DNA from: Promethearchaeota archaeon
Lineage (GTDB): Archaea; Asgardarchaeota; Lokiarchaeia; Sigyniarchaeales; SOKP01
NCBI GenBank assembly: GCA_019894975.1
Contig: JAGXNO010000012.1
Coordinates: 1 to 64,000 of the forward strand
Reading direction: 5' to 3'
DNA length: 64,000 bases
Both the position numbers and the translations under genes were made by a program. The notes under the pieces are model-generated. The model saw only the letters and a list, made by a program, of their open reading frames with translations. It was not told where the DNA came from and searched no databases. This document shows positions 12,692 through 27,262 of the stretch, in pieces (position 1 is the stretch's first letter; every line of letters begins with the position of its first letter).

Positions 12692-12803
12692 GCGGGAATT
12701 GCCAAGTCTGGTAAAGGCGCTGGACTTAGATATTACTTCAATATCTGCTGGACTCAGAATTCAGTCTCGTAGGAGTTCGGGAGTTCAAATCTCCCTTCCC
12801 GCA
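12692..12803 (+). tRNA. tRNA-Leu(CAG) with 28-nt BHB intron at position 32/33 (intron 12726-12753)
   Basis: Acceptor stem GCGGGAA/TTCCCGC, discriminator A, long variable arm, and T arm GGGAG-TTCAAAT-CTCCC. The BHB has central helix CTGG/CTGG, bulges AC|T and intron stem TAGATATT/AATATCTG. A T-run follows. Confidence 0.88.
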
Positions 12804-24159: not shown

Positions 24160-25143
24160 ATGGAAAATCTTCCCAATACATATCGTCTTAAGCAGGTACT
24201 GAAAAATTATTTTGAAGAGGTTGATGGTATTTTAGGTGTAGCGATATGTGATAGAGACGGCTTTATTATTGCTTCGGAATTCAAGGAAGGTGATGATGAA
24301 GAATCTGACTCCGTTATTGGAGCAATGTCAGCAATTCTTGATACTTATATTGATAGAATTAAAAGTGAATTTGGAACGAAGGGAAGTTTCTTCAATATAA
24401 CTATGATGGGGGATAAAAAATTTGCTTATTGTTCACAAGGCCCATTATCTATTTTAACAACAGTTGCAGATCAATCTACAAGTGATATAGAGTTAAAAGT
24501 ATATTCTGAGCATATAGCAGGAAAAGTTGAATTGATTTTAGATGGTAACAAGGATGTTTCCCCTAAGATCCCCGAAATTATTAGAGCGTTGGCAAAAACA
24601 AGGGCAGGATCCCTTCAAAACATGGCAGGAGAGTATTCTCATAAACTTATTTTAACAGGTGATTTTCAAGTAGGGAAGTCTTCCCTTATTAGAAGGTTTG
24701 TAAAGAATACGTTTGAAAAAGATTATATTTCGACTATTGGAGTGCAATTATCGAAGAAAATAGTTGATTTAACAGACAAAATAAAGATGAACTTTATCTT
24801 ATGGGATATAGGTGGTCAAATTAGACAAATGGCACCTTATCGCACTAAATTCTATAATGGTGCTAATGCTGCTTTTATCGTTATCGACAGAACTAGAGAG
24901 GACACTATGAGTAGTGTAAAAAAGTGGTATGAGGATATTAAGAATTCAATCCCAAAGAATATTCCTATTGTTTTGGTTGGAAATAAATCAGATTTAGTAG
25001 CTGAGATTAAAATTAGTGAGGAGGATATTAAGAAAGTAGCTCAAGATTTTGGTTTTCATTATATCCTTACTAGTGCTAAATCAGGAGAAAATGTTAATGA
25101 TGCATTTTTATATATTGCTTATCGAGTTATAGAAACACTATAA
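24160..25143 (+). CDS. Roadblock/LC7-like domain fused to a Rab-like small GTPase
   Basis: N-terminal GILGVAICDRDGFIIAS; G1 GDFQVGKS, G2 TIG, G3 WDIGGQ, G4 NKSD, G5 TSAK. Confidence 0.9.
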   Translation: MENLPNTYRLKQVLKNYFEEVDGILGVAICDRDGFIIASEFKEGDDEESDSVIGAMSAILDTYIDRIKSEFGTKGSFFNITMMGDKKFAYCSQGPLSILTTVADQSTSDIELKVYSEHIAGKVELILDGNKDVSPKIPEIIRALAKTRAGSLQNMAGEYSHKLILTGDFQVGKSSLIRRFVKNTFEKDYISTIGVQLSKKIVDLTDKIKMNFILWDIGGQIRQMAPYRTKFYNGANAAFIVIDRTREDTMSSVKKWYEDIKNSIPKNIPIVLVGNKSDLVAEIKISEEDIKKVAQDFGFHYILTSAKSGENVNDAFLYIAYRVIETL

Positions 25144-25228
25144 CTCTAATGATCCAAACTTTTTTATGAATTCTCTTTCTTTTAAATAATTGAAGTATAA
25201 ATTGAAATAAAATATGAAATTAACAAAA

Positions 25229-25234
25229 GGAGGT
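25229..25234 (+). promoter_or_regulatory. Shine-Dalgarno GGAGGT
   Basis: Lies 8 nt before ATA 25243, and about 70 nt upstream of the called ATG 25303. Confidence 0.7.
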
Positions 25235-25242
25235 TAAAAAAA

Positions 25243-26163
25243 ATAGTTCTAAAGGTAGATTGGCACGATGTGCTCACCACTTGAAACGCTGCTGGATATG
25301 TTATGGGATTTTCAATAAAAGAACTTACCTATAAAGGAAGATATCTTGTGTATCTCAGTGAAAAAGAATTAACAGGCCCTTGGTTCAGCTTTACTTTAGA
25401 AGGGAAAAAAATAGGTTCTATTCCAGTCATTCTAAGAAATATCGAACCTACTCCAATATATAAAATGATTAATACACGAAAAGGAACTGCTATAAGTAGA
25501 ATTACCTTGGATTTCAGTATCACAGAATATCTTAAGAAATTAACTGAAGAAAATAAATTGAAATCGATTCCGATTAAAAAGGAAGAATACGTTCGTTTAT
25601 ATAAAGATATCTTTAATCCTCCCAAAGTACCCTATATTAGTACGTTCTTTACTTTGAAAAACATTTCAGATTATGCTATGAAAAATTTCTCAATGTACTT
25701 CGTCTTAGATTTTGATATAAATGGACTTGACGGATTTGATAATGATTTATCAGGTTATGATGCGGAAAATGATGTGATTTATCAATATGATGACACAGGA
25801 TTGTATGGTGGATTTTCCCCTATTTCTAAATCAACAAATTACGAATCATGTCTAACACATGATTTTAAAATTGATAATCAAAATTTAAACCTTTCAAATA
25901 GTTTATTTGAAGGTTCAGGAGAAATCTTATCTGCTTTACAAATTGAATTCAAGACGCTTGAACCTAACCAATCTTTTCAGACTGCAATGGTTATTTCTGG
26001 GGGATTTAGCAAAGAAGAATTAATTGAAAATATTAAAGAAGGAAAAAACAACGCTATGAAACACTTACATCAAGTAAACAGATCAATCAAGTCAGAACAA
26101 CGTAATCTTCAGGAGGAAGCTTTTATAAAAATCAATCTTCAGCAAGCGGTTGATTGTAAATAA
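25243..26163 (+). CDS. Putative selenoprotein of unknown family (306 aa; in-frame TGA = Sec14)
   Basis: ATA GTT CTA AAG GTA GAT TGG CAC GAT GTG CTC ACC ACT TGA AAC GCT GCT GGA TAT GTT ATG is in frame with ORF 25303-26163. An RBS precedes it and a SECIS-like element follows in the 3' UTR. Confidence 0.72.
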
Positions 26164-26167
26164 TAAA

Positions 26168-26242
26168 AATCCACAATAATGAATCACTTAAAAAAATCCT
26201 ATTGGATAGTTATTTGATGAAAACCCTGCTCGGGTGTGGATT
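26168..26242 (+). promoter_or_regulatory. Putative eukaryote-like SECIS element (3' UTR)
   Basis: Helix I AATCCACA/TGTGGATT; core ATGA (26179-82) with GA (26219-20); helix II ATCA/TGAT plus TAA/TTA; unpaired A-run; apical mini-stem ATCC-TATT-GGAT. Confidence 0.72.
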
Positions 26243-26271
26243 GAAAAAATAAAGAAAAAAAAATTTGATTT

Positions 26272-26988
26272 TTAAATCTTTTTGTGCGACTTTAGATCAA
26301 AATAGGCATCCTCTAGAACATCCAGATACTCAATCAACGCTTTATTCGCAATAGATCTTTGTTCATAAGCTAATTTAATAACGTTCAAGAGATATTTAGG
26401 AAATATAAGATCCATGTAAAAGTCAGAAATAAGAGCATAGTATTCAATATTGTTCTCATCTCTAAAAACTTTAACCAAACGATTATCCCACAATAATTTC
26501 AACGCTCCATATGCGTCCTTAACTCCTTAGGCTCTTAGTTTATCAAGATCTTGTCGTGTTACAATTGCAGTTCTTAATAATCGCAATGTCTCATAAACTT
26601 CAGGATTTATTAAAATATCAACAACACTTAGGTTATCTTCCGTTGTGGGTTGATAATTTTGAAAAAATTTCTGAACTTCGGCAATATATTCCTTTGCAAA
26701 TTGAGTTGGTAAACCAGAGTTTATAGGATCTGCGAATAATTTTGCAGGAGGAACTCTAAGCATATATATATCTTTTGTCAAGACAATCAATTCTGATGGT
26801 AGTCCTTTTACCGAGACCTGTTTTATCATATCTCTTTTCAATAGTTCCATGAGAGTAGCTTCTATATCTACAAATCCCTCAATATATCTATCTCTTAGCC
26901 ATATTGTCAATTCTGATTTAGTCATAACACCTCTATCCCTTAAGTTATCTATTATCATTTGTTTAATCTCATCTTGATAAATGAGAGC
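26272..26988 (-). pseudogene. Hypothetical protein gene with internal TAA and probable 5' truncation
   Basis: ORFs 26527-26958 and 26272-26502 share one frame (LDKLRA*GVKDAYGALKLLWD). The protein-like frame runs up to ALIYQDEIKQ at 26988. Confidence 0.7.
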
Positions 26989-27262
26989 TTTTATTGTGAT
27001 AGATAGAACTCGACAGGATAATTTAAAAAGTGTAGATCTATGGCATAATGAAATAAAAAAATATGTAGGGAAGGAAATAAGTATTATTTTAGTAGGGAAT
27101 AAATCTGATGTGATTGAAAATATTGAAATTAGTGAAGTAAGTATAAAAATGATTGCTGAAGAGAAAGGATTTCATTATATCCTTACTAGTGCGAAGACGG
27201 GAGAAAATGTTCATGATTTATTTCTCTATATCGCATATAAGTTTTTGGAAGGAGTTTCGTAG
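26981..27262 (+). pseudogene. C-terminal half of a Rab-like small GTPase (G1-G3 missing)
   Basis: AFIVIDRTR, GNKSD and TSAKTGENV align with the C-half of the paralog at 24160. No P-loop is present upstream. Confidence 0.82.

Follow-up and report, generated by a model that had tools for sequence, protein, structure and literature searches.

The gene described here occupies positions 25,243–26,163 of the forward strand of a 64,000-nucleotide (nt) stretch of DNA from a Promethearchaeota archaeon (contig JAGXNO010000012.1, positions 1–64,000; referred to as the window, with G000 as the genome code). It very probably encodes a selenoprotein of 306 residues, from a family that is absent from current selenoprotein catalogues. 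In the proposed mechanism, the messenger RNA would present a perfect Shine-Dalgarno sequence, GGAGGT, 8 nt ahead of a near-cognate AUA start, and the UGA thirteen codons on would be decoded as selenocysteine (Sec) by tRNA-Sec and EFSec. Decoding would be directed by a eukaryote-like Sec insertion sequence (SECIS) starting 5 nt past the stop codon, and the product would comprise 306 residues instead of the annotated 286. The evidence consists of coding conservation through the UGA, cysteine at the equivalent site of homologues, a SECIS architecture shared with known selenoprotein genes, and the Sec machinery of the genome. A first-pass annotation, made from the letters of the window, had proposed a new selenoprotein family shortened by gene callers. 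Its positions for GGAGGT, ATA, TGA, the frame of the 286-residue open reading frame (ORF), the C-terminal A-V-D-C-K and the hairpin 5 nt after the stop were all correct. The family is indeed missing from those listed in PMC11227280 and PMC13188914, and its homologues are called at 285–287 residues.

Orthologous DNA was collected from 19 loci of species-representative genomes and 22 of metagenomes, and 34 loci had intact upstream sequence. The layout is identical in all 34: GGAGGT, a spacer of 7–11 nt (mostly 8–9), ATA or ATT, twelve codons, TGA, six codons and ATG. GGAGGT at this spacing and the TGA are kept in 34/34, and the start codon is ATA in 31 loci and ATT in three. Given its recurrence in these loci and in the 118 genomes described below, this arrangement is far beyond chance. 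From the ATA, the window reads I/M-V-L-K-V-D-W-H-D-V-L-T-T, TGA and N-A-A-G-Y-V, which leads in frame to the ATG at 25,303 that opens the 286-residue ORF; six sense codons therefore separate the TGA from this AUG, which lies 18 nt downstream. Across 32 unique orthologous sequences, mean pairwise diversity at codon positions 1/2/3 was 0.35/0.10/0.56 before the TGA and 0.31/0.14/0.46 between the TGA and the ATG. The 20 codons before the ATG together gave 0.32/0.11/0.50, a protein-type conservation, compared with 0.15/0.11/0.43 within the accepted ORF; the non-coding DNA that lies further 5' is flat, at 0.55. Synonymous changes made up 42% of the differences in frame versus 11% and 3% in the shifted frames. 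The N-terminal peptide follows the pattern I-V-L-K-[VI]-x-[WF]-[HN]-[DE]-[VI]-x-x-T-U-N-x-x-G-Y-[VIL]-M-G-F-S among orthologues. Homologues thus do not begin at the methionine encoded at 25,303, which had been flagged as an outcome that would speak against the proposal, and the 20 upstream codons are conserved as protein.

The methionine in question is residue 21 of the full protein. It is invariant in the window's clade and replaced by phenylalanine in genus g2 (genome G147) and in the cysteine forms of the protein, so it is not a conserved start. Gene callers shorten the protein to 286 residues because of the AUA start and the UGA at codon 14, and each public record that we saw is a mis-annotated hypothetical protein of that length. 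Since every one of the more than 400 relatives returned by protein search is called at 285–287 residues, that search was uninformative on the N-terminus. A sequencing error, another concern raised at the outset, does not account for the TGA, which stands in more than 100 independent assemblies as well as in contigs from metatranscriptome libraries. The latter, from four runs of three studies, map to the stretch at 90–97% identity. Four of them (starting at 25,200, 25,215, 25,237 and 25,238) bridge the Shine-Dalgarno sequence, the ATA and the TGA, with 25,249–25,349 unchanged, and one spans 26,080–26,300, SECIS included. These contigs attest to presence only, and the gaps before 25,200 and within the ORF are not evidence. 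None covers 25,100–25,181, and the two that begin at 25,200 and 25,215 give just a hint for the candidate TATA box listed in Table 1.

Several orthologues carry an in-frame stop 2–3 codons ahead of the ATA with no canonical start in between; this leaves no other start, and we therefore infer that translation begins at the ATA or ATT. The gene would then start at a weak codon behind a Shine-Dalgarno sequence of unusual strength. Strong leaders of this kind are rare in the genome: in a whole-genome scan, GGAGGT at 7–10 nt preceded only 19 ATG-led ORFs of at least 100 residues. A genome-wide scan for ATA or ATT starts led by GGAGGT found no general use of them, and would overlook ORFs interrupted by TGA; the sole ATA case that it returned is followed, at the next codon, by a canonical start. 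The AUA start thus looks gene-specific. The same scan returned two ATT-led candidates (C120:38978, minus strand, and C175:15134, minus strand) and one ATC-led candidate (C89:39681, minus strand), all with long ORFs.

Homologues were searched exhaustively with phmmer using the 306-residue sequence, which yielded 39 cluster representatives. Full-length cysteine-form homologues of 316–322 residues (~28% identity), encoded by an uninterrupted ORF, align from residue 3–5. They have methionine at the ATA column and a C-x-x-C motif whose second cysteine falls on the TGA column. Cysteine, and not the tryptophan whose presence would have spoken against selenium, occupies this column in the aligned proteins P0128, P0129, P0130, P0145 and P0146, and likewise in the genomic reads of G134, G135, G137, G138 and G143. 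Some relatives (P0138, P0139 and P0148) carry CxxCxxC. The cysteine near the C-terminus is likewise shared, as D-C-K/E/N in orthologues, W-C-K in cysteine forms and E-C-stop in family f4. Besides the Sec/Cys site, (nearly) invariant positions include G45, P46, F50, N140, D-F-D-I-x-G at 156–161, D168, Q181 and G190, among others.

A profile search over 400 genomes of the phylum provided the distribution. In f1, the taxonomic family of the window, the gene was found in 123 of 134 genomes, 118 of them with a full-length match and exactly one in-frame TGA. The sister family f3 has full-length matches without a stop, and the TGA recurs in families f2, f4 and f31. At the site itself, f3 reads ...I-C-V-N-C-K-E-K-G-Y... 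in a single open frame from an ATG; genus g2 of f1 (G147) reads C-I-T-U, with a GTG start one codon downstream of the ATA position; f2 reads C-K-W-U; f4 reads C-T-V-U or C-S-I-U, from an ATG; f31 reads C-[SVA]-S-U; and f28 reads C-S-K-U. Because these motifs extend across f1 genus g2, f2, f3, f4, f28 and f31, CxxU/CxxC is the ancestral motif, and the window's clade has replaced the first cysteine and kept the family-wide C-terminal one (C305). SepSecS was present in the five cysteine-form genomes and the five Sec-form genomes from other branches that were tested (5/5 each), so a lost Sec pathway does not account for the cysteine forms. Overall, nearly all genomes of one large lokiarchaeal family have the gene, in single copy, and related forms occur in at least five other Asgard families. 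In one f28 genome, a CxxU member (L080, G307:C6:677735-678472) lies ~600 nt from SepSecS (G307:C6:679064-680344), in convergent orientation.

The segment after the stop codon had been described as a SECIS-like hairpin, and the description held. It folds at -19 kcal/mol (z = -3.8), and none of 200 shuffles folds as well. Mariotti et al. 2016 (PMC4989117) list as lokiSECIS features AUGA, a stem of 9 bp, a run of five adenines, a G as the last base of the loop with an A before it, and GA. In the scheme of Huang et al. 2024 (PMC11227280), elements with an apical mini-stem are of type II. The element at 26,168–26,242 carries every one of these features and is of type II (Table 1). It is kept in every orthologous locus that includes the 3' untranslated region (UTR). 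In the alignment, G18, A19, G56 and A57 are invariant, with AGGA in place of AUGA in 2/20 sequences. The stem, of 8–9 bp, has the consensus UCAAAUAA paired with UUAUUUGA and is followed by AAAAA, with AAAG at the end of the loop. The mini-stem pairs CC with GG around a loop of 4–7 nt, and both of its pairs show two-sided changes. Over 42 distinct sequences, pairing extends to 98.8% of the alignment cells, with two-sided changes in 11 of 18 pairs; 0/500 shuffles reach this, and slid controls were 25–57% paired.

A covariance model (R1), built solely from 3' UTRs of this new family, gave two strong matches over the 3.9-Mb genome, namely the element itself and C109:96159-96238 (49.5 bits, E 7e-7). 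The latter immediately follows a vhuD gene that contains two in-frame TGA codons, so that R1 cross-matches the SECIS of a known selenoprotein gene. When R1 was run with filters off on known selenoprotein loci, the 3' UTRs of the three vhuD genes came out on top (49.5, 21.6 and 20.2 bits), followed by selD (16.2 bits). Direct reading of the selD and vhuD 3' UTRs in the same genome showed an equal layout, lower stem and GC side hairpin included. Loci of cysteine forms gave no significant match to R1; the UGA is accompanied by a SECIS, and the cysteine forms are without one. R1 does not reach the diverged SECIS elements of f4, f28 and f31. In f31 and genus g2, direct reading and alifold revealed the layout of AUGA, helix, GA and side hairpin after the gene; f4 has, as a candidate SECIS, just a conserved GUGA hairpin whose loop is not A-rich. 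Rfam at gathering thresholds returned no match in the gene region. In one vhuD gene (C109:96159-96300, minus strand) and in f31 members L078, L079, L085, L086 and L087, the AUGA of the SECIS contains the UGA stop of the gene itself.

The genome holds the machinery that the first-pass annotation had named as a prerequisite. A tRNA-Sec gene (62.6 bits), called tRNA-SeC(tca) by ARAGORN, adjoins that of SepSecS (482 bits), and EFSec (248 bits) is found 5 kb away on the same contig. A PSTK-like gene gave a full-length match (E 4.6e-36) below the curated cut-off. Known selenoprotein genes are likewise present: two tandem selD genes on contig C108 (10,686–11,525 and 11,979–12,773, both on the minus strand), each containing a single in-frame TGA and having a type II SECIS of its own, and three vhuD genes that contain two in-frame TGA codons apiece.

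Structure prediction with AlphaFold2 was performed on the 306-residue form with a 27-row alignment, which resulted in a mean predicted local distance difference test score (pLDDT) of 88.9 and a predicted template modelling score (pTM) of 0.87. Residues 3–14 are modelled as the first beta-strand, paired with the strand at 18–30, which places Sec14 at the tip of the hairpin. Residues 257–299 are helical, and the protein ends after ~50 helical residues. The model shows a stand-alone beta-supersandwich of the galactose-mutarotase-like type, with helices C-terminal to it. The supersandwich had been guessed from the core motifs of the sequence, and fold matches bear the guess out: Z-scores were 18–21 and root-mean-square deviations 2.6–3.6 Å over 216–236 (~225) aligned residues, covering model residues 1–280, and Foldseek returned E ~1e-8 with a probability of 1.00. 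The predicted fold is that of the N-domains of glycoside hydrolase (GH) family GH15 glucoamylase/glucodextranase, GH94 cellobiose phosphorylase, GH116 and cyclic beta-1,2-glucan synthase GP (1ulv, 1lf6, 2cqs, 7w2t and 8rf9), yet identity to them is just 11–16%, and the sequence does not match the supersandwich family that Pfam has for GH94. The GH enzymes possess an (alpha/alpha)6 catalytic domain; since none follows here, the protein is not a glycoside hydrolase or phosphorylase. We know of no counterpart of the Sec/Cys hairpin and C-terminal cysteine in GH15/GH94/GH116-type enzymes. Searches of Pfam and NCBIfam revealed no family at E <= 0.1 for the 306-residue protein or for its cysteine and CxxU relatives, and by the same databases it shows no sequence membership in SelD, HdrA, VhuD/FrhD, VhuU/FrhA, FdhA, FwdB, HesB-like, Prx-like, AhpF-N or DsbA-like proteins.

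Directly upstream (~100 nt) and on the same strand lies a gene for a roadblock-Ras GTPase, as had been noted from the sequence. The assignment agrees with the Pfam Ras match and a weak Robl_LC7 match at residues 18–90, and the gene precedes the selenoprotein gene in 31/31 loci with a match. It is also found upstream of the cysteine forms in L039 and L065, where the GTPases are 39–43% identical. Because the gene pair is kept even at ~28% identity of the protein described here, the two products probably act together. As to function, we favour, as a guess, a selenol/thiol redox site that Cys305 may resolve.

Among the other readings of the locus, a 13-codon leader peptide (upstream ORF) could end at the UGA, with the protein produced from AUG 25,303 by re-initiation or coupling and the 3' hairpin acting as a terminator or stability element. 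In its favour, UGA usually signals a stop, the AUG is as close as 18 nt and invariant in the window's clade, and all public annotations call the 286-residue form. This reading is nonetheless highly improbable, because the six codons between UGA and AUG evolve as coding in the same frame (0.31/0.14/0.46), residues 3–20 are homologous to the N-terminus of uninterrupted cysteine-form proteins, and position 21 is phenylalanine instead of methionine in genus g2 and the cysteine forms. The N-terminal strand moreover belongs to the predicted sandwich, and the 3' element has all lokiSECIS features and cross-matches known SECIS elements. We give even less credence to read-through or recoding of the UGA as tryptophan or cysteine by a near-cognate tRNA, with no selenium involved. 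Stop-codon recoding is reported for some Asgard lineages (PMC9723677), but in the genomes considered here other genes end at UGA as a normal stop codon, such as f31 and f4 family members and vhuD; it co-occurs with a SECIS that the cysteine forms lack, and the whole Sec pathway is maintained in the genome. It is rather unlikely, if less so than the preceding two, that the gene yields two products, the full-length selenoprotein from the AUA and a Sec-less 286-residue isoform from AUG 25,303, for instance when selenium is scarce or when the weak start is skipped. AUA is weak by nature, which makes scanning-independent initiation at the downstream AUG conceivable, and Met21 is invariant in the clade that lost the first cysteine; against this, no Shine-Dalgarno sequence precedes AUG 25,303, the short form would be without the first beta-strand and the only family-wide reactive N-terminal residue, and Met21 is absent from other Sec-form clades.

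On function, the redox site competes mainly with a metal site, in which the Sec/Cys position (CxxC/CxxU plus the C-terminal cysteine) would bind Zn, Ni, Fe or Fe-S and the protein would serve as a chaperone or sensor for metal. [NiFeSe] hydrogenases use Sec as a metal ligand, CxxCxxC occurs in the three relatives mentioned above, and two cysteine-form subfamilies are encoded divergently beside hypD, a [NiFe]-hydrogenase maturation gene. We hold a metal site to be unlikely for the window's protein, given that Sec14 and Cys305 are all that its clade retains, fewer ligands than a classical site needs, and that the hypD neighbourhood was not seen for this clade, where the partner is the GTPase. 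Equally tentative is a bolder extension of the selenoprotein reading, according to which this would be the first Asgard-specific selenoprotein family, its selenol would be a redox or selenium-dependent switch on the roadblock-Ras GTPase, and its synthesis would be gated by the AUA start, by Sec recoding and sometimes by a bulge-helix-bulge (BHB) splice. If true, redox state would be linked to the eukaryote-like small-GTPase signalling of Asgard archaea.

Several points weigh against the selenoprotein reading or its functional corollaries. Selenium insertion at UGA14 is deduced at the level of sequence, not of protein, and to our knowledge no experiment in an Asgard archaeon has yet demonstrated that loki-type SECIS elements function. 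Initiation at AUA or AUU would be unusual, with no general use of ATA in this genome. The RNA-library contigs are assembled, their libraries can hold DNA, and they come from relatives at 90–97% identity. The covariation counts are favoured by an alignment that was fitted to the model. Confidence of the structural model is lowest at Sec14 (mean pLDDT 62 for residues 11–20) and falls below 50 for residues 303–306, C-terminal cysteine included. Gene order is all that ties the protein functionally to the GTPase, and the classical CxxU redox mechanism does not apply unchanged in the window's clade because it is without the first cysteine.

Table 1. Coordinates of the probable selenoprotein gene, its SECIS, its upstream neighbour and the genes for Sec synthesis and insertion. 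Positions refer to the window unless a contig is given.
Feature	Position	Strand	Remarks
Roadblock/LC7–Ras-family GTPase fusion, upstream neighbour	24160..25143	+	327 residues; Pfam Ras 1.2e-38
Possible archaeal TATA box, TTTAAATA	25181..25188	+	putative and weak; read from sequence
Shine-Dalgarno GGAGGT	25229..25234	+	8 nt before ATA 25243
ATA, putative non-canonical initiation codon	25243..25245	+	ATA in 31 loci, ATT in 3
Probable selenoprotein coding sequence	25243..26163	+	306 codons (25243-26160) and stop TAA (26161-26163)
TGA, codon 14, presumably read as Sec	25282..25284	+	invariant in 34/34 loci
ATG chosen by gene callers, Met21 of the full protein	25303..25305	+	opens the 286-residue ORF
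Codon for Cys305, conserved penultimate cysteine	26155..26157	+	C-terminus ...A-V-D-C-K
SECIS, eukaryote-like, loki-type form II	26168..26242	+	3' UTR; first base is the fifth after the stop
SECIS lower stem	26168-26175 with 26235-26242
SECIS AUGA	26179-26182
SECIS helix 2	26183-26191 with 26210-26218		9 positions
SECIS A-run	26192-26196		loop opens with five A
SECIS apical mini-stem	26196-26199 with 26204-26207
SECIS loop end AG	26208-26209
SECIS GA	26219-26220		followed by an A-rich linker
SECIS side hairpin	26224-26234		small, GC
SepSecS	contig C44, 64016-65314	-	the three C44 genes are clustered within 8 kb
tRNA-SeC(tca)	contig C44, 65495-65583	-
EFSec	contig C44, 70454-71569	+

Set against published work, the proposed route of Sec insertion is already known for Asgard archaea, and what is new is the family, its predicted fold, the GTPase partner, the putative AUA start and the candidate intron found in relatives. 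Archaeal selenoproteomes are regarded as small, with 11 families that are all common to bacteria or methanogens, alongside a count of 119 prokaryotic selenoprotein families and subfamilies (2026 review, PMC13188914), and a survey of the Asgard selenoproteome in more than 400 genomes searched for known families only and reported seven (PMC11227280). Neither PMC13188914, with its 11 archaeal and 119 prokaryotic families, nor PMC11227280 lists the new family; its fold and its roadblock-Ras gene partner are without precedent among the selenoprotein families of PMC13188914. As in the lokiarchaeal genes for VhuD/HdrA, VhuU, Prx-like and SelD proteins (PMC4989117, PMC11227280), an in-frame UGA aligns with a cysteine of homologues and a lokiSECIS stands in the 3' UTR, and the ancestral CxxU motif is shared with VhuD and HdrA. 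In contrast to those selenoproteins, the new protein is unrelated in sequence and has no thioredoxin-like or Fe-S fold, its Sec lies 14 residues from an AUA/AUU start, and the CxxU partner cysteine was lost in the window's clade.

For the start codon, the closest parallel is that of E. coli infC, which starts with AUU and whose expression depends on initiation-factor fidelity. Like infC and other genes with near-cognate starts, the gene has a conserved non-AUG codon behind a strong Shine-Dalgarno sequence; unlike infC, it belongs to an archaeon and its start is putative. The case shows that annotation pipelines overlook genes in which a non-AUG start goes together with an early UGA. The Sec forms, the cysteine forms and the forms that lost the partner cysteine make up a natural comparison for why Sec is kept, and the family supplies ~45 new loki-type SECIS sequences, which are relevant to the evolution of eukaryotic SECIS elements.

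In five congeners, an insert of 32, 29, 28, 31 and 31 nt stands directly after the Sec TGA, and the window's own gene is without it. The loci concerned are L014, equal to L072 (G194), L068 (G216), L069 (G187), L070 (G191) and L071 (G225), and the N-terminal peptide is conserved in these genomes. The inserts, of sequence ...CUUG-AAU-CUUC...GAAG-CAAG-AAA..., fold into a 4-bp CUUG/CAAG central helix with a 3-nt 5' bulge (AAU) and a relaxed, A-rich 3' loop (2x4 internal loop). The inner helix varies in sequence and keeps its pairing through compensating changes, and the outer helix is formed between the exons. If each bulge is cut two bases in, the insert drops out and the frame again reads ...T-U-N-x-x-G-Y-V-M-G-F-S..., open to 306–308 residues, in 5/5 congeners. 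The best reading is that of a putative BHB-type intron in messenger RNA, whose predicted splice junction would overlap the Sec codon. Both ribosomal bypassing (hopping) and an in-ORF bacterial-type SECIS were rejected for these 28–32-nt inserts, as a matching codon for landing is missing and the insert lengths cannot all be divided by three. Archaeal BHB introns in protein-coding messenger RNA are represented by that of cbf5 in Crenarchaeota. The congener inserts resemble it in their predicted 4-bp central helix and bulges on opposite strands and in the frame that excision would restore, and differ in that the 3' bulge is relaxed and the splice site overlaps the Sec codon, as read here from DNA alone. 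If spliced, this mini-intron would be a rare BHB intron in archaeal messenger RNA.

Further observations concern the surroundings of the gene. A second, paralogous GTPase gene follows the selenoprotein gene in L008 (2617–3558) and L042, and is intact there. In the window, a 93-residue ORF at 26,981–27,262 (plus strand) corresponds to the C-terminal third of a second roadblock-Ras GTPase paralogue, the front of which is replaced by minus-strand ORFs at 26,272–26,502 and 26,527–26,958; these have no Pfam match and are otherwise found in the closest relatives only. The two cysteine-form subfamilies that lie divergently beside hypD (P0146 and P0160; L066 and L067) are not beside the GTPase gene. 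Elsewhere in the window, an Rfam tRNA match at 12,692–12,803 (plus strand) is 112 nt long, and this length suggests that the tRNA gene has an intron.

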